The notes below the pieces were generated by a model that ran no database searches, was not told the DNA's origin, and was given only the letters and a program-made list of their open reading frames with translations. DNA of 64,000 nt, from IMG/VR virus record IMGVR_UViG_3300023296_001674; one strand, given 5' to 3'. This document shows positions 7,013 through 57,643 of the stretch, in pieces. Source of the stretch: a virus. Position numbers and translations under genes: made by a program. The number at the start of each line of letters is the position of its first letter. The first letter of the stretch is position 1.

Positions 7013-7441
7013 ATGGTTTTTTCAAAATATGACAAAGGTCGCCCATTTTTGGTGGTAACACAAAATTCAAGACCCGCAGAAGGCGAGAATACTTCAACAA
7101 AAAACTGGGGCAAAACTGGCAAGAAAGTAATACAAGAAATGGTTTCAATTGTTGATACCGTCAAAGATAAGCATCTTTTCGAAGCCGCAGTTATTGTTGA
7201 TGTTTTACAACGACGCATCGTTAAATCAAGATTTTCTGATGATAATAGCGCCACATTAACTCATTATTTGACACAATACAAAAAAGAAATTGCTGAAGGT
7301 ATTCAGGTTTGGATGAGTAGACAATATGAAAATCAAGATGAAGCCCAAGCATTCATGGATAATCTTGATTCAGAAATAGTAAAAATGGATGTACCAACTG
7401 ATATAGTGGATGTAGTACCAGATGAAACAGTTAGCGAATAA
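7013..7441 (+). CDS. Hypothetical protein
   Basis: AAGGA RBS. No recognisable motif. Confidence 0.5.
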   Translation: MVFSKYDKGRPFLVVTQNSRPAEGENTSTKNWGKTGKKVIQEMVSIVDTVKDKHLFEAAVIVDVLQRRIVKSRFSDDNSATLTHYLTQYKKEIAEGIQVWMSRQYENQDEAQAFMDNLDSEIVKMDVPTDIVDVVPDETVSE

Positions 7442-11284: not shown

Positions 11285-11526
11285 TGAGCGATCCACACAA
11301 ATATATAATAACATATGGGCCATGCACGGGCAATCCATCCAATCATTTAAATTTTCAAAAAAAACATGACGGAAATAAAGTGAAAGAAATAAATGACACA
11401 CATGGATTGAATGTCAAAGTTGAATATGATATGGAATTTCATGGTAATGATCTTCATACACTTACCGTTATATACAGTTCGGATGAAGAATCAGATTTGG
11501 TTGCATTTAAATTGTTAACAATATGA
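11284..11526 (+). CDS. AFKLRW-tail family small protein (divergent tail ...DLVAFKLLTI)
   Basis: C-terminal VAFKLL motif. TAATG overlap with the upstream stop and ATGA overlap with the next gene. Confidence 0.6.
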   Translation: MSDPHKYIITYGPCTGNPSNHLNFQKKHDGNKVKEINDTHGLNVKVEYDMEFHGNDLHTLTVIYSSDEESDLVAFKLLTI

Positions 11527-11786
11527 CATTTGAAATAATAGATGCAGATGGTACCAAACCGCAATATATCGACGGCAAAGAAATATATGGATGCACACAT
11601 TATGTTGATTTTGACGGATATGTAAAAGACAAATATGATTGGATGCTTGACAATGTTGCCTTATGGTATTATGATGTTCAGCACGAGCCAATGGATAGAA
11701 ACGGTGATTGTGGCGGTGGTGAATTATTGACAATATATTTTACTACGATTGAAGACGCGATGGCGTTTAAATTAGCATGGACTTAA
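11523..11786 (+). CDS. AFKLRW-tail family small protein (...EDAMAFKLAWT)
   Basis: DWMLDN plus C-terminal DAMAFKLAW. Confidence 0.65.
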   Translation: MTFEIIDADGTKPQYIDGKEIYGCTHYVDFDGYVKDKYDWMLDNVALWYYDVQHEPMDRNGDCGGGELLTIYFTTIEDAMAFKLAWT

Positions 11787-11790
11787 CGAA

Positions 11791-12039
11791 ATGGTGTTAA
11801 AGAATATGAAAAAACAATATGAATATATGTTTTATGGCGACAATTATGATTTCGAAGATGTTCGCGAAATAGAAGAATGGTGTGTGGAAAATATTGTTGA
11901 CATTAATGATTGGTGGTTTGATGAAAAAATAACAAGACATTCTGAAGGTATTAATTATATTGGCACTCAATATGAATATGTATTTGGCTTCAAACACGAT
12001 ACAGATGCAATGGCATTTAAAATATTATGGGTTTTTTAG
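11791..12039 (+). CDS. AFKLRW-tail family small protein (...DAMAFKILWVF)
   Basis: EEWCVEN plus C-terminal DAMAFKILW. Confidence 0.65.
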   Translation: MVLKNMKKQYEYMFYGDNYDFEDVREIEEWCVENIVDINDWWFDEKITRHSEGINYIGTQYEYVFGFKHDTDAMAFKILWVF

Positions 12040-12052
12040 AGAGGAATATATC

Positions 12053-12256
12053 ATGACAACTGCTACGAAAGAAGAACAAATAATGTCTGCTTTTTATCTT
12101 GTTGGTAATAACGATACCGAACATGATATTAGAGCATGGTGGAAACAATATGGTGATTTATACGACGAAGTATTTGCCGATGAAAATAACAGAAAACGAT
12201 CCCAAGAAATAGCCGATGAGTTATGGATTGAAAAATGTCCACTTGACAAATCATAA
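12053..12256 (+). CDS. Hypothetical protein
   Basis: ATG 12053 follows a GAGAGGAA RBS. The listed 11960 start overlaps the preceding gene. Confidence 0.5.
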   Translation: MTTATKEEQIMSAFYLVGNNDTEHDIRAWWKQYGDLYDEVFADENNRKRSQEIADELWIEKCPLDKS

Positions 12257-12271
12257 ATAATGTAGTATAAT
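12243..12271 (+). promoter_or_regulatory. sigma70-type promoter candidate (full consensus)
   Basis: TTGACA (12243-12248), 17 nt, TATAAT (12266-12271). ATGTAGTAT box at 12260-12268. 31 nt before the ATG at 12302. Confidence 0.6.
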
Positions 12272-12301
12272 CAATACATTAACATAATAAAGGACGGCTT
12301 A

Positions 12302-22517: not shown

Positions 22518-22594
22518 GGGCGTGTATTCCAACCGGTAGAGAAACGAGACTTAAAATCTCGACAGTGTGGGTTCGAATCCCACCACGCCTACCA
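22518..22594 (+). tRNA. tRNA with anticodon UAA (Leu by anticodon) but class-I architecture; CCA encoded
   Basis: Hand-folded cloverleaf. Acceptor GGGCGTG/CACGCCT (G1-U72). D loop with GG. Anticodon stem CGAGA/TCTCG, loop CTTAAAA (TAA at 22552-22554). 5-nt variable region ACAGT. T arm GTGGG-TTCGAAT-CCCAC. Discriminator A, then CCA. Confidence 0.75.
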
Positions 22595-22598
22595 CATA

Positions 22599-22676
22599 GC
22601 TTCCGTCGTCTAACTGGATAAGGCACCCGACTTCTAATCGGGATATTTGTAGGTTCGAGTCCTACCGGGAGCACCA
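22599..22676 (+). tRNA. tRNA-Arg (anticodon UCU); CCA encoded
   Basis: Acceptor GCTTCCG/CGGGAGC. D stem GTCT/AGGC. Anticodon stem CCCGA/TCGGG, loop CTTCTAA (TCT at 22633-22635). T arm GTAGG-TTCGAGT-CCTAC. Discriminator A, then CCA. The variable region reads as 6 nt. Confidence 0.8.
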
Positions 22677-24021: not shown

Positions 24022-24257
24022 TGGCAAAAGTTATTTTACGCGAACCAGTAGATGTAATACGTTGGTGGCCGGGGGGCGACGAAATTGAAAATGTTACCGA
24101 GGTTCGTCATACTCAACTAGGATTTATTGGTCATTTGCAACAAGATGGAAATACGCTCATGGTAAAACCTGGTGATTATGTATTGTCATTTCTTGGAAAG
24201 CAAATAATAATGAATGAAGAAATTTTCAAAATCAACTTTAAAGGTCACAAAGAATGA
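24021..24257 (+). CDS. Hypothetical protein
   Basis: Translationally coupled on both sides (TAATG, ATGA). Confidence 0.5.
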   Translation: MAKVILREPVDVIRWWPGGDEIENVTEVRHTQLGFIGHLQQDGNTLMVKPGDYVLSFLGKQIIMNEEIFKINFKGHKE

Positions 24258-24646
24258 ATCAAGATATATGGGATCGATTAGATAAAGTTAGCACATTCAG
24301 GCTTACTTCATATTTGAAAAATGAATATCCACAAGTGGTTGGTGTCATTCTTTTCAATTTGTCTAGGAAAACGGTTGCTGGTGTAATGGATGAATTACCA
24401 GAAAATTTTGCTATGGAAGTTGTAATGCGTATGTTGCGCACGGATGATGTTCGCAAGGAAGTTATTGATATCATTGAAGACACATTACAGGATGAATTTT
24501 TTAATAATGTAGTCACTTATGACAATAAAGAAAAATTTATAGGTGATATGTTCGATGTTATGGTTCATTCTGATCACATGGTAGAACAGCTTGAAGAACG
24601 CAATCGTGAAATGGCTGAAAAAGTTAAGGGGTATATGGACACATGA
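24254..24646 (+). CDS. FliG middle-domain-like protein (flagellar rotor/switch homolog)
   Basis: LKNEYPQVVGVILFNLSRKTVAGVMDELPENFAMEVVMRMLRTDDV aligns by eye with E. coli FliG [46 protein letters not shown] (recalled), including the EHPQ-type motif. Confidence 0.7.
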   Translation: MNQDIWDRLDKVSTFRLTSYLKNEYPQVVGVILFNLSRKTVAGVMDELPENFAMEVVMRMLRTDDVRKEVIDIIEDTLQDEFFNNVVTYDNKEKFIGDMFDVMVHSDHMVEQLEERNREMAEKVKGYMDT

Positions 24647-25161
24647 TTAATCAATCTATGATAGAAGCATTAATACCGACAATGAAGAACACTGCATTTA
24701 AAGGTATTTGCACTAATCCAGATATTCAACTTGATAATTTGGCACTTATGACATTTGGTGAATATGTTGATACAATACCGCTTCCTGCAATGTGTTGTAA
24801 GTTTGATTTTGCTGGATATGCTGCATTTATCATATTTGATAGTTCATTGATATATTCTATGGTTGATGTTTTATCTGGTGGTCGTCGTGGCACCGCTGCA
24901 ATGCGAATTGAAGGCAGGGGATATACAACAATTGAAAAGCGCATTATTAAAGAATTAGTAATGGAATCAATTGTGAATGAGTTATTGTATGAACTCAATA
25001 TATTATCAAAAGATATATATATGGAAATAGAACATATAAGTCTCAGTCCAGATAATATGAGAAAGCAATTATCTGAAAATGAAATGGTTCAAATTGCACG
25101 AATGAGAGTAGACTTGGATGACCGTGGTGGTCGTTTCGAATTATGCGTTGAAGAACATTAA
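24643..25161 (+). CDS. FliM-like protein (N-terminal peptide + middle domain; no FliN-like C-terminal domain)
   Basis: AAFIIFDSSLIYSMVDVLSGGRRGTAAMRIEGRGYTTIEKRIIKEL versus E. coli FliM GLVVFSPSLVFIAVDNLFGGDGRFPTKVEGREFTHTEQRVINRM (recalled). GGxG motif present. N-terminal INQSMIEALI resembles LSQAEIDALL. Confidence 0.75.
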   Translation: MINQSMIEALIPTMKNTAFKGICTNPDIQLDNLALMTFGEYVDTIPLPAMCCKFDFAGYAAFIIFDSSLIYSMVDVLSGGRRGTAAMRIEGRGYTTIEKRIIKELVMESIVNELLYELNILSKDIYMEIEHISLSPDNMRKQLSENEMVQIARMRVDLDDRGGRFELCVEEH

Positions 25162-26611: not shown

Positions 26612-26639
26612 TAATTGAATATATTATAGAAAGGACTTT

Positions 26640-27083
26640 ATGATGGGTAAATCCATTTCACAAAACCGCAAAGTGCGCCATAACTATACCATTGATGATG
26701 AGTATGAAGCGGGTATTGTATTACAGGGCAACGAAGTAAAAAGTTTGGCTGTTGGACAGTGCAGCATTGCTGAATCGTATGTTACCATTGAAGGCAATGA
26801 AGCATTTTTGGTTAATGCGCATATTGATCCATATGATTTAGGTTCTAAGTTTGTGGCACAAGAGCCACGACGTCGGCGCAAATTATTGTTGCATAAACGC
26901 GAGATAAAGAATTTGCTTGTCAAATCGCAACAAGGGGGTTATACTATAGTTGCATTATCGATGTACTTCAATGACACGGGCAAGGTAAAACTTAAAATTG
27001 CCACTGCCAGAGGAAAGAAGAACTACGATAAGCGTGCCACGGAGAAGCAACGTGATTGGGATCGTGATAAGCGCAATTTATAG
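26640..27083 (+). CDS. smpB: SsrA-binding protein SmpB
   Basis: NRKVRHNYTIDDEYEAGIVLQGNEVKSL....I.ESYV...........H.DPY.......EPRRRRKLLLHKREI....K.QQGGYTIVALSMY....KVKLKIATARGKK.YDKR matches SmpB end to end. Confidence 0.9.
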   Translation: MMGKSISQNRKVRHNYTIDDEYEAGIVLQGNEVKSLAVGQCSIAESYVTIEGNEAFLVNAHIDPYDLGSKFVAQEPRRRRKLLLHKREIKNLLVKSQQGGYTIVALSMYFNDTGKVKLKIATARGKKNYDKRATEKQRDWDRDKRNL

Positions 27084-31739: not shown

Positions 31740-33662
31740 ATGGATAAAAATTTAATGGAAATCAAAGAAGCAGACATTCTTAAACATTATACATCGGTGT
31801 TTGGATTGGTTACTGACTTCAGTTATACTCCTAAAGCCAAAAAAGATTCAGGCACAGAAGAAGTAGTTTCCGATACCACATACGTTCGTCGCACTAAGCG
31901 TTCTCATGTGTCGGGTATTAAATCAACTGGTTCTAAATCTAGTGTTGCATTAATGGATACAATCGAAGGCGTTGATGGTGATGATCCGTTGATTACCGAA
32001 ATTCAAAGCCATATGATTCGTGTCATTCGCCGTGCTATGGCTATTGCCAGTGAAGTGGTAGACGTGTTTGGAAATTCAACTAATCTCAATCGTCTTAAAG
32101 AAGCAAATGGCAATGGACGTGTTTCCGAAATTGAACGAATTGAATTTCAAGAATTATTGAACACTGCGTCATTGATTGGATTGTTTGTTACCACAAGTTA
32201 TGTAACATTTATTCTTTCTGATTATATGACCGACAGTGACACCATGCAAATTTCCATCGATCCAACCGAAGAAATTGTAATTGACAATCCGGTTATCGCA
32301 CTGAAAGGCGCACTATGGGAACTTGATGACAATATTAAAAAATACGCAAAAGATGATATTACGCTAGTCCGCGTAGTGAAAGATTATTTTGCACAGTTGA
32401 TGGCTGAATTGCAAATTCGTAAATCAGGAATTCGTCACGCCGAAGTATTCATTGACAATAACTATCGGGTTGAAGAAGATAAATTTGACATCATTGGTTT
32501 TGATACAGCCAAAAAAGGTAAATCAACCAAACTTATTATGCAATTTGTTAGACCAGATCAAGTTGTTGGTAATCACATCGCGAAATATCAAGCATTAAAA
32601 TTAGCAAAAATGGTTGCACTATATGATTTCACACGCCAACGTAATCCGATATTGGATGTTGCTGGATTTCCACTTGGTGTTATTGGCGACGGTAATCCTG
32701 GAACTGGTAAGACAACTCTTTATCAAATGTTTTGTGGATTGGTTAATGATTATGCACAGGCGCAAAATCGCCCATTCGTTGTTGAAGTGTTTACGCCTGA
32801 TATGATTAGTTCATATCAAGGTAAAACCGCACAGAACGCTAAACAGGCGCTAACAAGCGGTATGGACCCACACGTATTCGGCAGTGTGCTGTTTGATGAT
32901 GTCGATCAAACGACAGCAAGCCGTGGTGATGATAAAGCATCCGCTGGACAACAAGAAGTAACGTCGGTTCTTATGGAAACACTTGCTGGTGCCAATACAA
33001 TCATCCGTGGGAACGCTTCTGCCTTTTTGTTTAGTAATTATCCAGAAAAAGTAGATGACGCCCTACGGCAGCGATGTGGGCTTCGTTGGTTGGTTGATGG
33101 GCCACAAACATTGGAAGATTATCAAGATATTCTTGCTTTATTGTTGGGTAAAAATCATACACTTGACTTGGGTGGTATTGAGTTGTATACTACACAAGAT
33201 ATCAAGAAAGCGATTGGACGTAGTTACGAGAAGCATAATCGCCCCACAGAAACTGCATTGATTGAAGTATTTGATCGCGTAGTTGATGAACAGGGCGAGT
33301 TGAATACCATCGAAAAAGTTGGTATTTACCTGAAAGCGATTCAAGGTGCTGATCCACGATTTACAGGTCGATCAATTAAGAATATTACCGATACTTGTAA
33401 AATGCGTTCGGCTGATTTTGAAGTTCCTGACGAATGGGTTGAAAATCCAGAAGTATTTGTTGAACTTGACTATGATCGCAAGGTTGATATGCTTAAAGAG
33501 TTAGTTACGCCTATTACAAGCGAAATGGTTTTACAAGAAACTAACCGTTATGCTGATTCAGAGTTTCGTTATTCTGATAAAAGCGATGAAGCCGAAATTG
33601 TAAATATGGTTCGTTATCACCATAATAAAACTGAGGCTGACAAACGTATCAGAAATGATTGA
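31740..33662 (+). CDS. Classic AAA-family ATPase with ~300-aa unknown N-terminal region
   Basis: Walker A GDGNPGTGKTT, Walker B VLFDDVDQ, FLFSNYPEKVDDALRQRCG (ATN.P..LD.A..RR-type second region of homology). Confidence 0.75.
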   Translation: MDKNLMEIKEADILKHYTSVFGLVTDFSYTPKAKKDSGTEEVVSDTTYVRRTKRSHVSGIKSTGSKSSVALMDTIEGVDGDDPLITEIQSHMIRVIRRAMAIASEVVDVFGNSTNLNRLKEANGNGRVSEIERIEFQELLNTASLIGLFVTTSYVTFILSDYMTDSDTMQISIDPTEEIVIDNPVIALKGALWELDDNIKKYAKDDITLVRVVKDYFAQLMAELQIRKSGIRHAEVFIDNNYRVEEDKFDIIGFDTAKKGKSTKLIMQFVRPDQVVGNHIAKYQALKLAKMVALYDFTRQRNPILDVAGFPLGVIGDGNPGTGKTTLYQMFCGLVNDYAQAQNRPFVVEVFTPDMISSYQGKTAQNAKQALTSGMDPHVFGSVLFDDVDQTTASRGDDKASAGQQEVTSVLMETLAGANTIIRGNASAFLFSNYPEKVDDALRQRCGLRWLVDGPQTLEDYQDILALLLGKNHTLDLGGIELYTTQDIKKAIGRSYEKHNRPTETALIEVFDRVVDEQGELNTIEKVGIYLKAIQGADPRFTGRSIKNITDTCKMRSADFEVPDEWVENPEVFVELDYDRKVDMLKELVTPITSEMVLQETNRYADSEFRYSDKSDEAEIVNMVRYHHNKTEADKRIRND

Positions 33663-33678
33663 TTGAAGGGATAAAATA

Positions 33679-34956
33679 ATGCAATTACTTGTCGATAATG
33701 AGTTAAAGTATGGAAATTTGTTGTTGGTTGATTCTGCACATTTAATCGCACGGTATAATCGTGCATTGAATGTTATATGTGGAAAAAAGACCGAGTTGGA
33801 AATTTTTCATATTGATGGCAGTGGATATAGCCCCGAAGTCGCGAAAGAACTCGACGATAAAGAATATATGAATCCACACGGTGTTAATAAGAAAATCATC
33901 ATTTTGTCATTAGAACAAGAAGGTCTTCCAGTATTGGATTCTTATTTCTCCACTACACGTGATTTGATTAGACGATTTATTCAAGATAATAAATCTGAAC
34001 TTTTTGCACTAACGAGTCGTGATGTGGTTTATGGCGAACTGGAGAATTCAACATTCAAAATTGAAAGTTTCACGGATTTGCTATGTATTAAACGCATCAT
34101 ATTTGAAATCAATACAGTTGGTGATTCCATCAAAAAAGGAAAACAGCTTACCAGTTTGATTAAATCATTTATGGTTAACGATAATATGTGGCATGATGAA
34201 AAAACGGTTGAAGAGATTATTGGGTTATCATCTGTGGTTGGTGATATTCGTCGACACCAAGTGACGCCGTCGCACACCGAATATAAACAAATCAATTTTT
34301 ATTCACGGCATTACGGCGGCGTATATGTATTCAATCACGACAATGGTGATTATACAGTTATTGCGCATGAAGAACAATACAGAAAAGAGGCTGAAACTTG
34401 TCATTTAAATGTTAAATTCATCCACATAGATGATAAAAAAGAAGTGATTGCATTTTTAAAGAAGAATAACATCGTTGAGATGTATAGTGATCGATATTTG
34501 CGCAAGAATATAGATTTGATGCGTGAAAAAATTAATTTCATCGCAATTGATCATATGTCACAGACGCACACAGACGCAGATTTGACGGATATTAGCGATG
34601 ATGAAATTAAAAAATATATTTATGATCACTATGATGAGTTACCTAAAGAGTTCCGCGTTCTTTCAAAAGCAGTAAAATTGATTGATAACGGATATTCTGT
34701 GGATTTGGAATCTGGTTCTGATGATATATTTTTCTACTTTGCTCGTTCTAGCGATCACGATCTCAAAGATTTGGTTAATCAATTGATTGCGTATTACACG
34801 CCGTTAGATTTTCTAAATGTGTTTATATCCAACAAACGTGCTTTTTATGAGTTGTATGACGAGTGGTCCAATAGTAAAAAATCATTTGTTGTTAATTACT
34901 TGGTTAGAGAATATCAACAAGATAAACACAGAATTAAAGGTAAATTCTTTGGGTAA
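33679..34956 (+). CDS. Hypothetical protein
   Basis: GAAGGGA RBS. 425 aa with no motif recognised. Confidence 0.55.
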   Translation: MQLLVDNELKYGNLLLVDSAHLIARYNRALNVICGKKTELEIFHIDGSGYSPEVAKELDDKEYMNPHGVNKKIIILSLEQEGLPVLDSYFSTTRDLIRRFIQDNKSELFALTSRDVVYGELENSTFKIESFTDLLCIKRIIFEINTVGDSIKKGKQLTSLIKSFMVNDNMWHDEKTVEEIIGLSSVVGDIRRHQVTPSHTEYKQINFYSRHYGGVYVFNHDNGDYTVIAHEEQYRKEAETCHLNVKFIHIDDKKEVIAFLKKNNIVEMYSDRYLRKNIDLMREKINFIAIDHMSQTHTDADLTDISDDEIKKYIYDHYDELPKEFRVLSKAVKLIDNGYSVDLESGSDDIFFYFARSSDHDLKDLVNQLIAYYTPLDFLNVFISNKRAFYELYDEWSNSKKSFVVNYLVREYQQDKHRIKGKFFG

Positions 34957-38535: not shown

Positions 38536-38564
38536 TTGACAAATATGCATTATTGACGTATATT
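38536..38564 (+). promoter_or_regulatory. sigma70-type promoter candidate abutting the dnaJ start
   Basis: TTGACA (38536-38541), 17 nt, TATATT (38559-38564). The ATG at 38571 lies 7 nt after the -10. Confidence 0.45.
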
Positions 38565-38570
38565 ATATCT

Positions 38571-39416
38571 ATGAAAAAATATTATGAAACATTAGAAGTC
38601 GAAAAAACAGCAACCGATGCCGAAATTAAAAAATCGTATCGCAAGTTGGCTATGAAATATCATCCTGATACAAATCCCGATGATGTAACAGCCGAAAATA
38701 ATTTCAAAGAAATAAATGAAGCATATGAGGTTTTATCCGACGAAACGAAAAAATCTAACTATGATACATTTGGCGATCCTGATGGTAGACCTACACCACA
38801 CACTAGCCAGCACGGTTTTGGTGGTGGTTTTCAATCAGCAACAGATTTTAATGATATTTTCAATGATATTATGAATGCACGAAGTGCACCAAAAAATGCT
38901 CATGCACAATCACAAATGACTATTACATTGGAAGAGGCGTATGTAGGATCATCAGTTGAGATAGAAATAACTAATCATAAAAATATATCATCAAAGCAAA
39001 ATATAAGAATTCCCGCTGGTATTAAACATGGTATGACGTTACGCCTTGCGGGTGCCGGTCATCATCACATTGAGGAGTTGCCACCCGGTGATTTATTGGT
39101 TAATATACAAATCACACCACATTCCATATTTACTGTGGTAGATTACAATTTAATCATGGAAGAAAAAATTAGCATGATCGAAGCCGTGTTTGGCAAGGAA
39201 ATAGAAGTTACTACATTGGCTGGAAAAACTTTGAAATTAGAAATTCCAAAAGGAACGCAACCAAATCATAAAATTCGATTAAAAGGTAAAGGAATGCCCG
39301 TATTAAACAGAAAAGATGTATTTGGTGATTTATATATAATTGTCAATGTTGAAATACCTACGAATATAACACAAAAACAACGAGATTTATTAAGTGAATT
39401 TAATGAAGTTTCTTGA
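38571..39416 (+). CDS. dnaJ: DnaJ/CbpA-like J-domain co-chaperone (no zinc-finger domain)
   Basis: J domain YYETLEVEKTATDAEIKKSYRKLAMKYHPD. G/F region GFGGGF. C-terminal beta domains. No CxxCxGxG repeats. Confidence 0.85.
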   Translation: MKKYYETLEVEKTATDAEIKKSYRKLAMKYHPDTNPDDVTAENNFKEINEAYEVLSDETKKSNYDTFGDPDGRPTPHTSQHGFGGGFQSATDFNDIFNDIMNARSAPKNAHAQSQMTITLEEAYVGSSVEIEITNHKNISSKQNIRIPAGIKHGMTLRLAGAGHHHIEELPPGDLLVNIQITPHSIFTVVDYNLIMEEKISMIEAVFGKEIEVTTLAGKTLKLEIPKGTQPNHKIRLKGKGMPVLNRKDVFGDLYIIVNVEIPTNITQKQRDLLSEFNEVS

Positions 39417-39473: not shown

Positions 39474-40004
39474 ATGATAGAAATTGTTTTAGAAGATGAT
39501 CCAGCATTAAAAATTGTTGTGCCACTATATGATTTTGACGAGCCGTTGAATATTGTAACTACACAAGATGAATTCGGTTTAACTGAATTCATTGATGCTA
39601 TGTTTGTGACCATGAAATTGAATAAAGGTCTCGGTTTGGCGGCTAATCAAATAGGACAAAACGTTCGCGTATTTGTTATGGATTTTTACGGCGAAGAATT
39701 TATTTGTATCAATCCAATAATTGAACAGTCATCAACAGAATTTACAATAGATCAAGAAGGCTGTTTAAGTTTTCCAGATTTATCATTAAATGTAAAACGA
39801 TCATCTGAAATATTTGTATCGTATTCAAATATCGATGGCGTTGAAATTCAAAGATGGTTATCTGGTATTACAGCTAGGTGTTTTCAACATGAACTAGATC
39901 ATTTGAATGGGATAACATTCGATTCACAAGTTGCAAAGCTAAGTTTAAAAATGGCTAAAGACAAAAGAAGAAAAAAAATAAAACAAAAACAAAGGAATAC
40001 CTAA
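39474..40004 (+). CDS. def: Peptide deformylase
   Basis: Motif 1 GLGLAANQIG, motif 2 EGCLSFP, motif 3 QHELDHLNG. Confidence 0.9.
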   Translation: MIEIVLEDDPALKIVVPLYDFDEPLNIVTTQDEFGLTEFIDAMFVTMKLNKGLGLAANQIGQNVRVFVMDFYGEEFICINPIIEQSSTEFTIDQEGCLSFPDLSLNVKRSSEIFVSYSNIDGVEIQRWLSGITARCFQHELDHLNGITFDSQVAKLSLKMAKDKRRKKIKQKQRNT

Positions 40005-42263
40005 ATGCCTAACGGATTTGACCAACGACACATTTCTATAATGCTTCAAAAAGCAGTAACATTAGCAGAAAAATACGATCACATATATATAACATTAGAA
40101 CATATCAGTTTAGTATTACTGGATGATAAGTCCGTTGATCACGGTATTAAAGAATGCGGCGGCGACATAAAACTTATTAAAGAAATGGTTTTGACTGCAT
40201 TGTTAGATGAAGCAGATATAACTGAAGCAGGAACTGAGCCACAACCAACAAGAGCAGTCATCAATGTTATTCAACGGGCAATCCAGCATTCTGTTGGATC
40301 AGGCCGCAATACAGTTGAACCATTTTATCTTATGGCAAGTTTGTTAATGGAAAAAGATTCCGTTGCTGTATGGGCATTAGCACAACAAAATGTTGATCGT
40401 GTAAGTTTTATTAGAACTATAAATGTTCCACCATCAGGACAAAATAAAGGTGGCCCGATGAATGAACTCGATCCTATAACGGGTCAACCTATGCCACAAC
40501 CTGAAAATGCATTAAGAGATTATTGTGTTAATTTGAATGAAAAGGTAATTGCTGGTGATATTGATCCATTGATAGGTCGCGAAAAAGAAATTGAACGGTC
40601 ACTACAAGTTTTATCTAGACGACGCAAAAACAATCCATTGCTTGTTGGTGAGCCAGGAGTTGGTAAAACCGCTATTGCAGAAGGATTGGCATGGAAAATT
40701 GTTAATGAAACCGTGCCAAATTATATCAAAGATTCTATTGTATATTCGTTGGATATTGGTGCACTTATGGCTGGTGCCAAATTTCGCGGTGATGTCGAAG
40801 AACGATTAAAAGCGGTTCTTGCCGGATTGGAAGAAGTTGGCAAAACCAACAAAACCATATTATTCATTGATGAAATTCATACCATTATTGGTGCGGGTGC
40901 TACATCAGGTGGAAGTATGGATGTTAGTAACCTATTGAAACCCGCACTTGCTGCTGGTTCATTACGTTGCATGGGTTCCACCACATATGCTGAATATAAT
41001 AAGTATTTCGAAAAAGATGCGGCACTTAAGCGTCGTTTCAAAAAAATTGATATTATTGAACCTACTGTTGATGAAACAAAAACTATTATCAAAGGTTTGG
41101 CAAAATATTTTGCTGAGTATCATGAAGTTAAATTCACAAAAGAAGCATTAATGAGTGCAGTTGATTTATCCGTTAAGCATATACACGATAACAAACTTCC
41201 AGATAAAGCGATTGATGTTATTGATGAGGCGGCGGCAGCACAAAGATTATTCGATGGCGAAGATCGCCTTGAAATCATTGATGTTAAACAAATTGAAGAA
41301 ACCGTTGCAAAGATTGCAAGGATTTCTATTGATGCAACATCAAAAACCGACAAAGATAGATTGCGTAACCTTGCAGAAAATCTAACAACACATGTGTTTG
41401 GTCAAGAAGAAGCGATTGATGTTCTAACCAAGGCAGTTAAATTAAGCAAATCTGGATTGCGTGAAGAAAATAAACCGATTGGTAATTTCTTATTCAGTGG
41501 ACCTACAGGCGTAGGTAAAACCGAAGTTGCAAAACGTCTTGCCGATGAACTAGACGTTCCGTTGGTGCGATTTGATATGTCTGAATATATGCAAAAGCAC
41601 GAAGTGTCTAAACTTATTGGATCGCCACCTGGTTATGTTGGTCATGATGATAGTGATGGATTTTTAATTGAAGAAATTGATAAGCATAATTATTGTGTTT
41701 TATTGTTAGATGAAATCGAAAAAGCACACCAAGATATATTCAACGTTCTGTTACAAGTTATGGATAATGCAACACTAACCGGTGGTCGCAATAAAACAGT
41801 GCGCTTTGACAATGTTATAATCATCATGACATCAAATGCTGGTGCATCAGACCTTGCAAAAGAAGTTATGGGATTTGGCAACGAAGAGCGAGTTGGCGAT
41901 GATCTTATAGCCATCGAAAAATTATTTACACCTGAATTTAGAAATCGTTTGGATAAAATCGTTGGATTTAAACCATTACAACAAGAAATAATGAATAAAG
42001 TTGTTGTTAAATTTATAAAACAATTGAAAGTTCAACTTAAAACACAGGATGTTAAACTTACGTTGATGAAGAAAGCCATTGAGTGGCTTGCCGTTAAAGG
42101 ATACAGTTCCAAATATGGAGCACGACCACTTTCGCGTGTAATAGACAATCATATCAAGCAGCCAATATCTGAAGAGTTATTATTTGGTCAACTTGAAAAT
42201 GGTGGTTCAGTTAAAATTGACATCGTTGAAGACGAACTTGAATTCACTTACAAACCAAAATAA
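40005..42263 (+). CDS. clpA: ClpA-type double-AAA+ unfoldase
   Basis: N-domain [67 protein letters not shown]2 [13 protein letters not shown] and [10 protein letters not shown]. About 750 aa without a long ClpB middle domain. MGFG loop in the ClpP-docking position. Confidence 0.9.
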
Positions 42264-43043: not shown

Positions 43044-43823
43044 ATGAAATTTACATTTCTAGGTGCAGGTAGCGCATTTACGATGGAAAACTATCAATCT
43101 AATATGATAGTGACATCAGATTCTGGAAAAAATTTATTAATTGATTGCGGTGGCGATGTGCGCCATAGTATGAAAGCGGCAGGATTTGGCGTAGCCGATA
43201 TTGATGCGATATATGTCAGTCATCTACATTCAGATCACACTTCTGGAATCGAATGGTTGGCGTTTAATACATATTTTAATGATGCCTTAAAACAACCAAA
43301 AATGTTTATCAATGAAAAACTTTCACGTGAACTTTGGGAAAATACACTACAAGGTGGACTTGGAAGCATACAAGGAAAAATAACCACCCTTGATTCATAT
43401 TTTGAAGTTACTCGTGTTATAAAAAACAAATGTTTCATTTGGGAGGATATTGAATTTAGACTCGTTCAAGTGATTCATTATATGGATGGATTTGACATTG
43501 TTCCATCATATGGTTTGTTGTTTACAGTGAATGGATTGAGATATTTCTTAACTACTGATGCTCAACATGCTCCTTCGCAAATTCAAGATTTTTACAACAT
43601 GAGTGATGTTATCTTTCAAGATTGTGAAACTACCCCGTTTGCATCCGGTGTTCATGCGCACTATGAAGAACTTATAACACTTAATGAAGAAACAAAAGCC
43701 AAAATGATACTATATCATTATTCAGATGGCGACAAGAAAGATTGCACCAACGATGGATTTAGATGTTGGGCAACAAATCAAATGGAAATTGATTTAAATA
43801 CAGGAACGGTAATTAACGCATGA
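43044..43823 (+). CDS. Metallo-beta-lactamase-fold hydrolase (RNase Z/PhnP-like)
   Basis: LLIDCGG, then the HxHxDH motif SHLHSDHTSG, then a later TTDAQH. Confidence 0.75.
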   Translation: MKFTFLGAGSAFTMENYQSNMIVTSDSGKNLLIDCGGDVRHSMKAAGFGVADIDAIYVSHLHSDHTSGIEWLAFNTYFNDALKQPKMFINEKLSRELWENTLQGGLGSIQGKITTLDSYFEVTRVIKNKCFIWEDIEFRLVQVIHYMDGFDIVPSYGLLFTVNGLRYFLTTDAQHAPSQIQDFYNMSDVIFQDCETTPFASGVHAHYEELITLNEETKAKMILYHYSDGDKKDCTNDGFRCWATNQMEIDLNTGTVINA

Positions 43824-46291: not shown

Positions 46292-46488
46292 CTCATTTTG
46301 AATCCCATTGAATCTTCTTCATCTAACAACCAGACCACCGATGATGGTGGTTTTCGGACATCGGCAGAATCACATATGGCATAACTGTCTTCATCGATAT
46401 TGTCGATCAGCCATAGTTTAACTTCATCCATTTCGTTGTTGGAAATATAGAATTTTGTGTTGTTTATTTGACGTATTTTCATATCCAT
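46282..46488 (-). CDS. AFKLRW-tail family small protein (...[10 protein letters not shown])
   Basis: KLWLIDN plus tail. 10-nt overlaps on both sides. Confidence 0.65.
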
Positions 46489-46847
46489 CGTAATTTAAAT
46501 GCAACCACGTCGCTTTCATTATTGAATACAAATTTATACGTTAAATTATTTCGTTTGTCTTCAGTATAAGACCGGACGTAATATTCTTCAACGTTTTCTT
46601 TGAGCCACTCATTCATGTTATTTACCGTGACTTCATCATAGTTTTGCAACAACGCATAATATGATTGCTGTTCAACAATTTCAAATGATGGCTCCAATGA
46701 TTTAGACTGAACTGTGTGTATCGTTTCACTGCATATATCAACGCATTCATTGCAAATATATACATCTACACTAGCAATTAAATGTTTTACTTGCGATTGA
46801 TCTTTTTTACAAAATGAACATGTAGGTACTTTATTTTTTATAGCCAT
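46479..46847 (-). CDS. ClpX-type C4 zinc-finger fused to an AFKLRW-tail domain
   Basis: [34 protein letters not shown] versus E. coli ClpX [34 protein letters not shown] (recalled). C-terminal NEWLKEN...[10 protein letters not shown]. Confidence 0.75.
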
Positions 46848-49371: not shown

Positions 49372-50673
49372 ATGACACATATATCGTTATATAATAGCAT
49401 GTCGAGAGAAAAAGAAAAATTCAAACCAATAGACGATTCTCGCGTAACTATGTATTATTGCGGTATCACCCCTTATGATAAACCACATCTTGGTAACGTA
49501 AGAGCGAGTATCACTGGTGATATGATATATAGACTGTTGCGGGTTTTTTATAAATCAGAAAATGTCATATATGCTAGAAATATTACTGACATAGATGATA
49601 AAATCGAAGCAAAAAGCCAAGAAACAGGAAGGTCTGCGATTGATATAACGAATGAAACTATTCAATGGTTTCATGAAACTATGAAAGTATTACATGTATT
49701 GCCACCGGATTTGGAGCCAAGGGTTTCTGATAATGAAGAATCTATGATGGATATGATTAACATATTACTTGATAAAAATATCGCATATAAATCAAATAAT
49801 GGTGACATTTATTTTGAATTAGATAAATTTCCAGAACACGGAAAATTATGCCGCCACAGTCGCGAAGATTTAAATATAAATGAAGAACATTCTTCAGAAA
49901 AAAAACATCCACAAGATTTTGTTTTATGGAAAGAAAATCATCAACGATTTGGTTGGCATATTGAATGTTCCGCGATGATTAAAAAGCATTTGGGTGACAC
50001 TATCGATATTCATGGTGGTGGTGGTGATTTACGTTTCCCACATCATGAGAATGAAATAGCTCAAAGTGAAACTGCTAATGGTGTCCCATTGGCTAATTAC
50101 TGGATGCATAACGGTATGATTACAGTGAACGGAAAGAAAATGGCTAAATCTACTGGAAGCTTTATTACAGTCGATGAAGCACTAGATCGTGTTCCCGGCG
50201 AAGCGATACGATTTTACATGCTTAAGACGCATTACCGTAAACCGTTTGATTGGTCGTGGGATGGTTTGATGGAAGCCAAGTCTGAACTTGATGGGTTATA
50301 TAGAAAGATGCAGAAACGCACTTATGTTAAAATGGGTGGCGTGTCAGTACAAGTATTATATGCGTTGGCTGATGATTTGAATACACCATTGGTGATATCA
50401 GAATTATACAAAGAAGCGGATAAGGAAATATCTTCTTTATTGGATTCGGCGCAGCTATTGGGTATACTGAATCATACACCAGAAGAATGGTTTCATGGCA
50501 CAACGAAAGATTCATTACTTGATGCATCGTCAATCGAGGCACTTATTGAAGTACGGAAACTATTGAAAGAAAATGGCGACTATGAATCTGCGGATATAAC
50601 AAGAGATATATTATTAGGACAAGGCATTATACTTGAAGATAAACCAGATGGGACAACTTGGCGAAAAATATGA
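49372..50673 (+). CDS. cysS: Cysteinyl-tRNA synthetase
   Basis: MYYCGITPYDKPHLGNVRA (HIGH-type), GWHIECSAM, HGGGGDLRFPHHENEIAQSE, KMAKSTGS (KMSKS). Confidence 0.9.
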   Translation: MTHISLYNSMSREKEKFKPIDDSRVTMYYCGITPYDKPHLGNVRASITGDMIYRLLRVFYKSENVIYARNITDIDDKIEAKSQETGRSAIDITNETIQWFHETMKVLHVLPPDLEPRVSDNEESMMDMINILLDKNIAYKSNNGDIYFELDKFPEHGKLCRHSREDLNINEEHSSEKKHPQDFVLWKENHQRFGWHIECSAMIKKHLGDTIDIHGGGGDLRFPHHENEIAQSETANGVPLANYWMHNGMITVNGKKMAKSTGSFITVDEALDRVPGEAIRFYMLKTHYRKPFDWSWDGLMEAKSELDGLYRKMQKRTYVKMGGVSVQVLYALADDLNTPLVISELYKEADKEISSLLDSAQLLGILNHTPEEWFHGTTKDSLLDASSIEALIEVRKLLKENGDYESADITRDILLGQGIILEDKPDGTTWRKI

Positions 50674-55572: not shown

Positions 55573-56295
55573 TTATTTATGTTTACAATTGTCATTATGC
55601 CACCTATTTAATGCTCCATAATTTCGAGTTGATAAATTGCAATGAGGGCATGTTTTATATGGCTGTGATAATTTTGCTTTAGACATTTTATTTTTAGCCG
55701 ATATTGTTTTAGGTTTTCCTTTTGCCGCATTGCTCATTTTTTGTTTAGTTGTTTCGGAGTGTGTTCTTCCGTATTTACCTGTTAATGCCGCGCTAATACA
55801 TTTTTTAGTTTCTTTGCTGAGTTTTTTACCTATATTCGCCAAAAATAATTTTTGTTTGGTTTCTGCTGTATGTTTTTTGCCTACCCCCGCTAAAGATAAT
55901 TTTTGTTTGGTTTCTTCTGATAATTTCTTACCTTTATGAGCATTGCTTATTTTTAATTTAGTTTTTTCAGTATGTTTGTATCCACTTTTACAATAAAATT
56001 TATTGTCGCCGTTGTGTTGATTTAGATAATTTGTATTATTGGCTGCGTCAATTTTTGATAAAACTTTGCTTTCCCATAATCTGGCTTTTTTTGGATTATT
56101 TGGAAATTCTTTACGTATTTCATATATAAAATTTTCTAATCCATATTTTTGTATAAGGCTTTCGATAATTGCCGATGAAGTAAAATATGTAGACCACAAA
56201 TCAGATGGGTGGCAGTTTTTAGCATATCTTACCCCATAATAATGTTGGCCCGTTTCTAAAAAAGTTATGCGATATGTATAAGGTATATGATTCAT
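55573..56295 (-). CDS. GIY-YIG homing endonuclease (Seg-like) with NUMOD3 repeats
   Basis: YTYRITFLETGQHYYGVRY (GIY-YIG). Five repeats of HTEKTKLKISNAHKGKK-type modules. C-terminal CPHC..C Zn motif. Confidence 0.85.
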   Translation of the reverse strand: MNHIPYTYRITFLETGQHYYGVRYAKNCHPSDLWSTYFTSSAIIESLIQKYGLENFIYEIRKEFPNNPKKARLWESKVLSKIDAANNTNYLNQHNGDNKFYCKSGYKHTEKTKLKISNAHKGKKLSEETKQKLSLAGVGKKHTAETKQKLFLANIGKKLSKETKKCISAALTGKYGRTHSETTKQKMSNAAKGKPKTISAKNKMSKAKLSQPYKTCPHCNLSTRNYGALNRWHNDNCKHK

Positions 56296-56425
56296 CTTGA
56301 TTTTCCTTGGCTTTTATGATAGTATAAATAATAAAGTAGTGGGACAGCCCAACTTCCTTGGCGGGTTTTAGTTGTTGAAACCAACTAATTACCACTATAT
56401 CTATTTATTTTTTGGAGTTAAAATC

Positions 56426-57643
56426 ATGAATGACCATCGCGAGATTGCTACAGCTTTAGACTTATTTCATTTTGAGGAGCATTCACCAGGAATGGTATAT
56501 TGGCATCCTGAAGGGTTTAAATTATATCGAACCATAGAAGAATATATGCGAAGCATGCATGAAAAATATGGATATAAAGAAATTAGAACACCAATAATGG
56601 TCAATAAATCTTTATGGAAATTGTCTGGTCATTGGGATAAATTTCAAGACAATATTTTTATTGCTGGTGAAATAGGTGAAGTAATAAGCGATGAGTTAAT
56701 TTATACTGACGGGCAATATGTAATGTCTCCGATGAATTGTCCAAATCATATACAAGTGTACCAAAAGGGAACAAAGTCTTACAAGATGCTACCTGATCGT
56801 TTATTTGAATTTGGTGTGGTGCATCGCAATGAACCATCTGGATCATTGGCTGGCATTATGAGATTGCGAAGTTTTACACAAGATGACTCGCATATACACT
56901 GTACTGAAGATCAAATTTTGAGTGAAACAACCAATTTTATCAATATGCTTCAAGAAGTTTATTCTAAGTTTGGGTTCAATGACGTCGCTGTAAAACTTGC
57001 CACTCGATGTGAAGAACGCATTGGCGACGATGCCAGTTGGGATAAAGCCGAGAAAGCATTAGAAGATGCTTGTATACATCTTGGATTGGAATACACAATT
57101 AATCCCGGTGAATCAGCATTCTATGGCCCAAAACTTGAGTTCACGCTACAAGATAGCCTTGGTCGTGATTGGCAATGTGGAACCATCCAGATTGATTTTA
57201 ACATGTGCGAACGATTGGGTGCTACATACATTGACGAAAATGGTGATAAGAAACATCCGGTATTGATTCACCATGCTGTATTGGGAAGTTTGGAACGCTG
57301 GGTTGGTGTATTGCTTGAGAACAGCAATGGTGAACTACCGTTGTGGCTTGCCCCTACACAAGTGGTTGTTGCCAGTATTACCAGTGATGTTAATGACTAT
57401 GCTGAAGAGAAAATGGTTACACTTAGTGGTATCGGATATCGAGTTGAGTTGGATGACCGAAATGAAAAAATCGGTAAGAAAATCAAAGACGCACAGAAAC
57501 GACGTATTCCATATATGCTTATTGTGGGTAAAAAGGAAAAAGAGAATCAAATGGTCAACGTTCGCAAATTGAACGGCGACCAAGATGATATGGAGTTGAT
57601 AGATTTTATAGGATCATTCGTCAAATCTACAAATGAAAGGTGA
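56426..57643 (+). CDS. thrS: Threonyl-tRNA synthetase, catalytic + anticodon-binding domains only (no TGS/editing region)
   Basis: Starts MNDHREIATALDLFHF.E.SPGMVYWHPEG, the segment that opens the ThrRS catalytic core. HRNEPSG, FTQDDSHIHC, class II motifs. C-terminal anticodon-binding domain. TGGAG RBS 8 nt before ATG 56426. Confidence 0.85.
   Translation: MNDHREIATALDLFHFEEHSPGMVYWHPEGFKLYRTIEEYMRSMHEKYGYKEIRTPIMVNKSLWKLSGHWDKFQDNIFIAGEIGEVISDELIYTDGQYVMSPMNCPNHIQVYQKGTKSYKMLPDRLFEFGVVHRNEPSGSLAGIMRLRSFTQDDSHIHCTEDQILSETTNFINMLQEVYSKFGFNDVAVKLATRCEERIGDDASWDKAEKALEDACIHLGLEYTINPGESAFYGPKLEFTLQDSLGRDWQCGTIQIDFNMCERLGATYIDENGDKKHPVLIHHAVLGSLERWVGVLLENSNGELPLWLAPTQVVVASITSDVNDYAEEKMVTLSGIGYRVELDDRNEKIGKKIKDAQKRRIPYMLIVGKKEKENQMVNVRKLNGDQDDMELIDFIGSFVKSTNER

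Follow-up and report, generated by a model that had tools for sequence, protein, structure and literature searches.

A tmRNA needs SmpB to be stable, to be delivered by EF-Tu and to be accommodated on ribosomes whose mRNA channel is empty, and the growth of some phages depends on host trans-translation. Carriage of a single half of this system is common among phages. A census in 2014 found ssrA in a few phages and smpB in none (PMC4131195), and phages that carry the tmRNA only, such as the Bxz1-like mycobacteriophages and Bacillus phage G of that census, the Sinorhizobium phage Phosso and many contigs in IMG/VR, presumably rely on the host to supply the rest. The phage described here appears to be the mirror image of these phages, carrying the protein and, in the 81 kb scanned, not the RNA.

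The presence of SmpB in a phage is not in itself new. A survey of huge phages in 2020 reported that their translation genes include both SmpB and tmRNA, the tmRNA calls being made with ARAGORN (PMC7162821), and the novelty that an earlier note on this DNA implied for a phage SmpB was therefore overstated. Within the first 200 files of the supplementary genomes of the 2020 survey at least eight genomes encode an SsrA-binding protein, the best matches of these eight proteins being to named Bacteroidetes, Mollicutes or Clostridium, and the SmpB matches in a phage database include 15 Prevotella-phage records. The SmpBs of the huge phages (e.g. LR756501) and of the Prevotella phages are likewise found among tRNAs, aminoacyl-tRNA synthetases and peptide deformylase, but have only about 42% identity with the present SmpB, which is of an alphaproteobacterial type and sits in a Phosso-like backbone. 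What is new here is a distinct, phage-only clade of alphaproteobacterial-type SmpB in a Phosso-like lineage.

One of the huge phages, LR756501, is a complete phage of 735 kb with SmpB at 199.5 kb and 59 tRNAs, and in the reassembled complete genome no tmRNA was detected by ARAGORN or nhmmer. The tRNA array of this phage also contains two odd tRNA-like elements with a G3:U70 acceptor stem, at about 366,480-366,584 and about 366,900-367,070 of LR756501.1 (both on the minus strand), which are about 105 and 170 nt long, one of them having a sub-threshold match to RF00023 (18 bits, E = 1.5e-4). These could be elements that consist of a tRNA-like domain only or intron-bearing tRNAs.

Closer to the present phage are the jumbo phages of Rhizobiales, namely AP-J-162 (471.5 kb) and the T4-like jumbo myoviruses Atu_ph07 of Agrobacterium (490 kb) and Phosso of Sinorhizobium (469 kb), all of which have a smaller genome with a higher GC content. 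In AP-J-162, a Sinorhizobium phage described as a relative of Atu_ph07, one tmRNA has been annotated, and Atu_ph07 is reported to have none (PMC11242549). The genome of Phosso (PV764938.1, 469 kb) was taken in full and mapped by local tblastn to the window, by which is meant the whole stretch of 64,000 nucleotides analysed here. Within an unannotated gap of Phosso there is a permuted alpha-type tmRNA (349553-350242, minus strand) that scores 108 bits with the Rfam model RF01849 and 113 bits with RF04321, has an intervening segment of roughly 380 nt and encodes the tag ANDNVSTKVALAA. It lies more than 200 kb from the part of the backbone that is shared with the window. ARAGORN reports no tmRNA in Phosso, a false negative for phage tmRNAs of this type, and local tblastn of Phosso gives no SmpB. 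SmpB is also absent from Atu_ph07, which sets both phages apart from the present one. A further unannotated RNA of Phosso, a GOLLD RNA (187 bits) that has a tRNA embedded in it, was observed at 33533-34001 on the plus strand of PV764938.1, within a 1-kb gap in the annotation.

The smpB gene of the window and its parts are as follows.

26630 to 26635, plus strand: AAAGGA, a Shine-Dalgarno-like sequence 7 nt before the ATG at 26643, from reading of the sequence
26640 to 27083, plus strand: smpB open reading frame of the six-frame list, 147 amino acids from the first ATG
27010 to 27080, plus strand: codons of the C-terminal tail, R124 to L147, placed by alignment, with a helix predicted at residues 131-146

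The open reading frame begins ATGATG, and translation from the second ATG, at 26643, gives a protein of 146 amino acids. This second ATG is likely to be the true start; it is the one used in public gene calls (P0001, 146 amino acids, 100% identical), and AAAGGA is its putative ribosome-binding site.

The product is a full-length, canonical SmpB. Pfam PF01668 matches it with E = 7e-54 and 182 bits (cut-off 27), over positions 1-138 of the 143 in the profile, and both NCBIfam equivalogs are well above their cut-offs (NF003843 with 190 bits against 130, TIGR00086 with 168 bits against 119). A phmmer search of PDB sequences gave fifteen SmpB chains with E values from 1e-38 to 3e-27. An AlphaFold2 model, for which an alignment of 72 sequences was the input, has a mean pLDDT of 87.1, and in it a beta-barrel leads into a C-terminal helix (residues 131-146). 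When this model was compared with the PDB by Foldseek the top 21 matches were all SmpB chains (query TM 0.61-0.81, core rmsd 1.2-1.4 A), with no non-SmpB match below E = 0.1. The claim of the earlier note that the reading frame is collinear with SmpB over its full length, made without profile searches, thus holds against all three profiles and the solved structures, and the tail motif it quoted is present.

The C-terminal tail was aligned with those of relatives from the phage clade, of alphaproteobacterial SmpBs and of the E. coli and T. thermophilus proteins. The E. coli numbering is sound, since the aligned sequence is identical to PDB chain 6q98_5. Within the phage protein the tail motif reads R124-G-K-K-N-Y-D-K-R132 ... 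W140, so that the basic tail described from the sequence alone (GKK.YDKR...RD) is intact, and its residues correspond to those of E. coli in the alignment as follows.

E. coli K131-G-K-K134: phage R124-G-K-K127
E. coli H136: phage Y129
E. coli D137-K-R139: phage D130-K-R132
E. coli K143: phage K136
E. coli R145: phage R138
E. coli W147: phage W140

A review lists the SmpB tail residues whose mutation abolishes tagging (PMC4151336), and by that list counterparts of all the tagging-essential tail residues are found in the phage protein. The same review reports that the effect of His136Tyr is only minor (PMC4151336), and Tyr is the natural residue at this position in T. thermophilus SmpB. Compared with proteobacterial SmpBs the phage protein is without an N-terminal extension of 8-15 residues and without the last 6-13 residues, its final L147 aligning with E. 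coli I154, the position at which T. thermophilus SmpB, a functional protein, also ends. The earlier note proposed a comparison of the tail with that of the host SmpB; set against proteobacterial SmpBs the tail is shorter with its functional residues kept, and no known essential element of SmpB is absent from the phage protein.

This bears on the suggestion, also made earlier, of an antagonist role, in which the phage SmpB would be a decoy that binds host tmRNA or ribosomes unproductively and so blocks host trans-translation. As some tail mutants of SmpB keep the binding of tmRNA and ribosomes whilst tagging is abolished (PMC4151336), a dominant-negative form is conceivable, and the present tail is the shortest within its clade. 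However, an antagonist predicts damage to the tail or its loss in particular lineages, neither of which is seen; the residues whose loss yields such mutants are all conserved, both here and across the phage clade, the tail stops where that of a functional SmpB does and it is modelled as a helix. With purifying selection acting across the clade as well, an antagonist is very improbable.

The relatives of the protein place it within a group of its own. In a search of 5.8 billion proteins the identical P0001 was followed by 14 metagenomic SmpBs at 60-79% identity, and cellular SmpBs were all at 58% or below, every named one being alphaproteobacterial (Sneathiellaceae, Marinibaculum, Kordiimonas, Oricola, Brucellaceae and Liberibacter). 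Cellular alphaproteobacterial SmpBs share the fold, the tail motifs and the full-length profile match, and have 51-58% identity with the phage protein in Sneathiellaceae, Marinibaculum, Kordiimonas, Oricola and Liberibacter; the present gene differs in being phage-encoded, in belonging to a separate clade found only in phages and in having no tmRNA found near it. The neighbours of the protein at 58% identity (P0016) are ordinary bacterial genes, a cellular context. The relative at 79%, on contigs of 257 kb and 234 kb, has the same downstream DUF2333 gene and next two open reading frames as the window, along with the same upstream block with a Macro-domain gene, and the relatives at 60% and 63% have a Macro gene and three conserved open reading frames, then SmpB. 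Comparison of four of the phage smpB copies gives pN of 0.14-0.26 against pS of 0.76-0.86, with synonymous sites saturated. The gene is thus best regarded, from these comparisons, as a member of an old, phage-only SmpB clade whose position has been kept under purifying selection. A JGI scan with the alignment of the phage-clade SmpBs was set aside, as it gave only relatives at or below 55% identity, mostly cellular as judged by the high GC of several loci and host-style tmRNAs in others. In the 79% relative a tRNA match of 124 nt (7249-7372, plus strand, of the locus L004) was also observed about 2.6 kb upstream of smpB, consistent with an intron-containing tRNA.

The element that carries the gene is much larger than the window. 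An exact copy of the SmpB protein is found on seven contigs, four of which are of 0.2-1 Mb, the longest having 570,549 and 570,750 bp. On the first of these (ena:ERZ27315719:k141_202852, from ENA) smpB is at 141.9-142.4 kb and the window corresponds to roughly 105-169 kb, or some 11% of its length. About 35% of the window is GC and nearly all of its genes are on the same strand. They include a T4-type clamp loader (phrog_168, E = 2e-72), a split topoisomerase II (phrog_551), PhoH, MazG, homing endonucleases and two aminoacyl-tRNA synthetases, and in the 81 kb covered there are no virion structural genes (capsid, portal, sheath or terminase). The best cultured matches by tblastn are Phosso and Atu_ph07, both for topoisomerase II (54% and 49%) and for ClpA (45% and 43%). 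The backbone is collinear with that of Phosso, with 3.3-8.9 kb of the window corresponding to 94.6-103.7 kb of Phosso, 18.2-19.5 kb to 107.5-108.8 kb and 38.5-42.3 kb to 124-127.7 kb, and with a ligase just right of the window corresponding to 141-143 kb. The order shared is MazG, DnaE-like, clamp loader and PhoH, then DnaJ, Def and ClpA, then ligase, over about 70 kb of Phosso (73-143 kb). The block that contains SmpB has no counterpart in Phosso by local tblastn, and is an insertion relative to it. A megablast of the region against INPHARED gave no match, nor was the phage found in IMG/VR, and a JGI scan with fragments of the outermost flank proteins found no relative, so that the contig is missing from the JGI collection. 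The small open reading frames between the topoisomerase II genes are a feature of their own: in the window about 1 kb (11285-12301) with four of them (80-92 amino acids) separates the two genes, and in Phosso small open reading frames lie between these genes too.

The clamp loader, the split topoisomerase II, the homing endonucleases and the collinearity with Phosso bear out that this DNA comes from a phage, as had been supposed, and that this is a jumbo phage of roughly 570 kb related to those of Rhizobiales. Its host is probably alphaproteobacterial, given that the nearest cellular SmpBs are from Alphaproteobacteria and that the closest phages in culture have Sinorhizobium and Agrobacterium as hosts. 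That smpB is a functionless passenger recently taken from a host, or that the contig is itself cellular DNA, is a reading that draws on the SmpB matches in the phage database, most of which are host genes at the edges of prophages. It is hardly credible here: the clade is old, reaching down to 60% identity, and has kept its position, the low non-synonymous against saturated synonymous divergence argues for a gene kept by selection, the gene order is collinear with that of Phosso, the window contains the clamp loader, split topoisomerase II and homing endonucleases just described, and independent assemblies agree on a length of about 570 kb.

Whether a tmRNA accompanies the gene was examined in the window together with 8.2 kb to its left (L011) and 8.7 kb to its right (L012), joined through exact overlaps, a total of 80,955 bp that corresponds to about 96.3-177.2 kb of the contig, or 14% of it. 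The only tRNA-like genes in the window, by ARAGORN and by Rfam, are the pair that had been noticed by eye at 22.5 kb.

22518 to 22594, plus strand: tRNA-Leu(taa), ARAGORN and Rfam
22599 to 22676, plus strand: tRNA-Arg(tct), ARAGORN and Rfam

ARAGORN found no tmRNA in the 80,955 bp, nor did Rfam 15 at its gathering thresholds find any tmRNA family there (RF00023, RF01849 and RF04321 included), nor, in the window, with permissive filters at E <= 10. A custom scan for a tRNA-like domain (a T-arm and an acceptor stem with G3:U70 and ACCA) gave nothing with CCA in the 81 kb, and three matches without CCA were rejected, being within open reading frames and at the level of shuffled sequence. Fourteen two-piece tmRNAs from phages were used to make nhmmer profiles of the acceptor and coding pieces, and with these the best match in the 81 kb had E above 3, against E = 3e-14 for the Phosso tmRNA as control. 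A profile of 19 one-piece tmRNAs also gave nothing in the 81 kb, a weak control in that the two-piece tmRNA of Phosso itself has only E = 0.004 with it. The Phosso tmRNA was recovered as a positive control by Rfam, by the custom scan and by the phage-trained profiles. Out to about 35-45 kb from smpB, then, tmRNAs of every known architecture are absent. The earlier note called for a scan of the full genome with ARAGORN or covariance models, permuted forms included; over the 14% covered here such a scan confirms its report of no tmRNA in the window and extends this by about 8.5 kb on each side. Its further idea, that a two-piece tmRNA might have gone unseen, was well founded. Phosso, the closest cultured relative, does have a permuted alpha-type tmRNA that ARAGORN misses; with the same Rfam models and the phage-trained profiles none was found in the window.

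The smpB loci of four relatives are also without a tmRNA by ARAGORN, Rfam and nhmmer. Of 80 SmpB loci from metagenomes, all of them other than alpha-type, 19 have a one-piece tmRNA downstream of smpB; the adjacency of the two genes varies by lineage, and its absence here is therefore uninformative on its own. Likewise, absence from the window says little about the whole genome, because the window is only 11% of the 570.5-kb contig. An attempt to guess the position of a tmRNA by synteny was rejected, the flanks having no Phosso homologues and tmRNA being sporadic among such phages.

It is quite possible that the phage encodes a tmRNA of its own, probably of the permuted alpha type, in the other roughly 490 kb of the genome, in which case smpB would be half of an ordinary, non-adjacent pair. 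The region scanned is only 14% of the genome, in Phosso the tmRNA lies far from the backbone shared with the window, and huge phages with both SmpB and tmRNA were reported in 2020. That two related phages, Phosso and AP-J-162, both carry a tmRNA counts against the host as the source and raises the prior for one in the present phage. Permuted tmRNAs are also common in viral contigs. When IMG/VR was scanned for the acceptor motif of the alpha type, at least 120 viral stretches matched. Among those listed the GC content is under 42% in all but about twenty, and in about 35 a PhoH homologue is no more than a few kb away; in the stretches that were sampled, 14 out of 14 proved to be complete permuted two-piece tmRNAs, many adjoining tRNAs. 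With so many viral matches the acceptor pattern was rejected as a means to single out the present phage in metagenomes. Nothing speaks directly against a tmRNA elsewhere in the genome, although Atu_ph07 is reported without one, no SmpB lies within any of the stretches fetched around the 120 motif sites listed, the complete, SmpB-bearing LR756501 has none by ARAGORN or nhmmer, and there is none at the smpB loci of the four relatives.

The reading preferred here, with a probability of about 0.55, is that the phage supplies a functional SmpB that serves the two-piece (permuted) tmRNA of its host. It is favoured because of the alphaproteobacterial affinity of the protein, the precedent of phages that carry a single component and the absence of a tmRNA at the smpB loci of the clade that were examined. 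During infection the phage-made SmpB would bind a tmRNA encoded elsewhere, most likely that of the host, by its tRNA-like domain. [quoted passage not shown] The setting may be one in which host expression, that of smpB included, has been shut down and mRNA decay is high, as shut-off of host transcription and degradation of mRNA by the phage would give rise to non-stop complexes with no new host SmpB to deal with them. The benefit to the phage would be the continued recycling of ribosomes, and the tagged fragments would be cleared, possibly by the phage ClpA and ClpS with a ClpP.

Several genes near smpB may be relevant to this last step.

38553 to 39416, plus strand: DnaJ-like gene, syntenic with the Phosso gp193-195 block
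39474 to 40004, plus strand: peptide deformylase, syntenic with the same block
40005 to 42263, plus strand: ClpA-like unfoldase, syntenic with the same block
46479 to 46847, minus strand: small open reading frame, a stand-alone ClpX-type C4 zinc-finger domain (PF06689, E = 1.9e-15)
2096 to 2413 of L011, just left of the window: ClpS adaptor

ClpA is among the unfoldases that are able to feed ssrA-tagged proteins to ClpP, and it is tempting to link the ClpA-like, ClpS and ClpX zinc-finger genes to the disposal of tagged proteins, although this is speculation.

Other genes of the region are of interest in their own right. About 1.5 kb upstream of smpB are two adjoining small open reading frames that match parts of the flagellar motor switch, FliG_M (24254-24646, plus strand, E = 5.4e-17) and FliM (24643-25161, plus strand, E = 2.8e-22), fragments that are unusual for a phage and that might interfere with the motility of the host. 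At 43044-43823 (plus strand) there is an open reading frame with an Apyc1 (anti-Pycsar) or metallo-beta-lactamase fold, a candidate anti-defence nuclease that would degrade cyclic nucleotides. The open reading frames at 49372-50673 (plus strand), 56372-57643 (plus strand) and 55573-56295 (minus strand) include a cysteinyl-tRNA synthetase and a short class II synthetase, the latter 47% identical to the C-terminal part of the Phosso ThrRS and adjoining a NUMOD3 homing endonuclease. Just right of the window is a Thg1-like tRNA-His guanylyltransferase (10923-11837 of L012).

A wider proposal is that jumbo and T4-like phages of Alphaproteobacteria routinely take over the ribosome rescue of their hosts with exactly one half of the system, with a two-piece tmRNA only in Phosso and many marine contigs and with SmpB only in the present lineage. 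This is rather unlikely, but if it were true each half alone would be limiting or under attack during infection. The supply of host SmpB might collapse, or an RNA-cleaving defence might flood the cell with non-stop mRNAs, and the phage SmpB would then be a counter-measure that keeps ribosomes free and not mere gene hoarding.

For the study of such phages a practical point follows from Phosso, where ARAGORN missed a permuted tmRNA with a long intervening segment, so that statements that a phage of this kind has no tmRNA need covariance models behind them. For the lineage itself, an SmpB that looks to be in working order has long been kept with no adjoining tmRNA at any locus examined, the opposite of what is found in its nearest cultured relative. 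Should the whole genome be without a tmRNA, this would indicate that supply of the protein alone is worth its cost to the phage, and would point towards the supply of SmpB as a weak spot of infected alphaproteobacterial cells.
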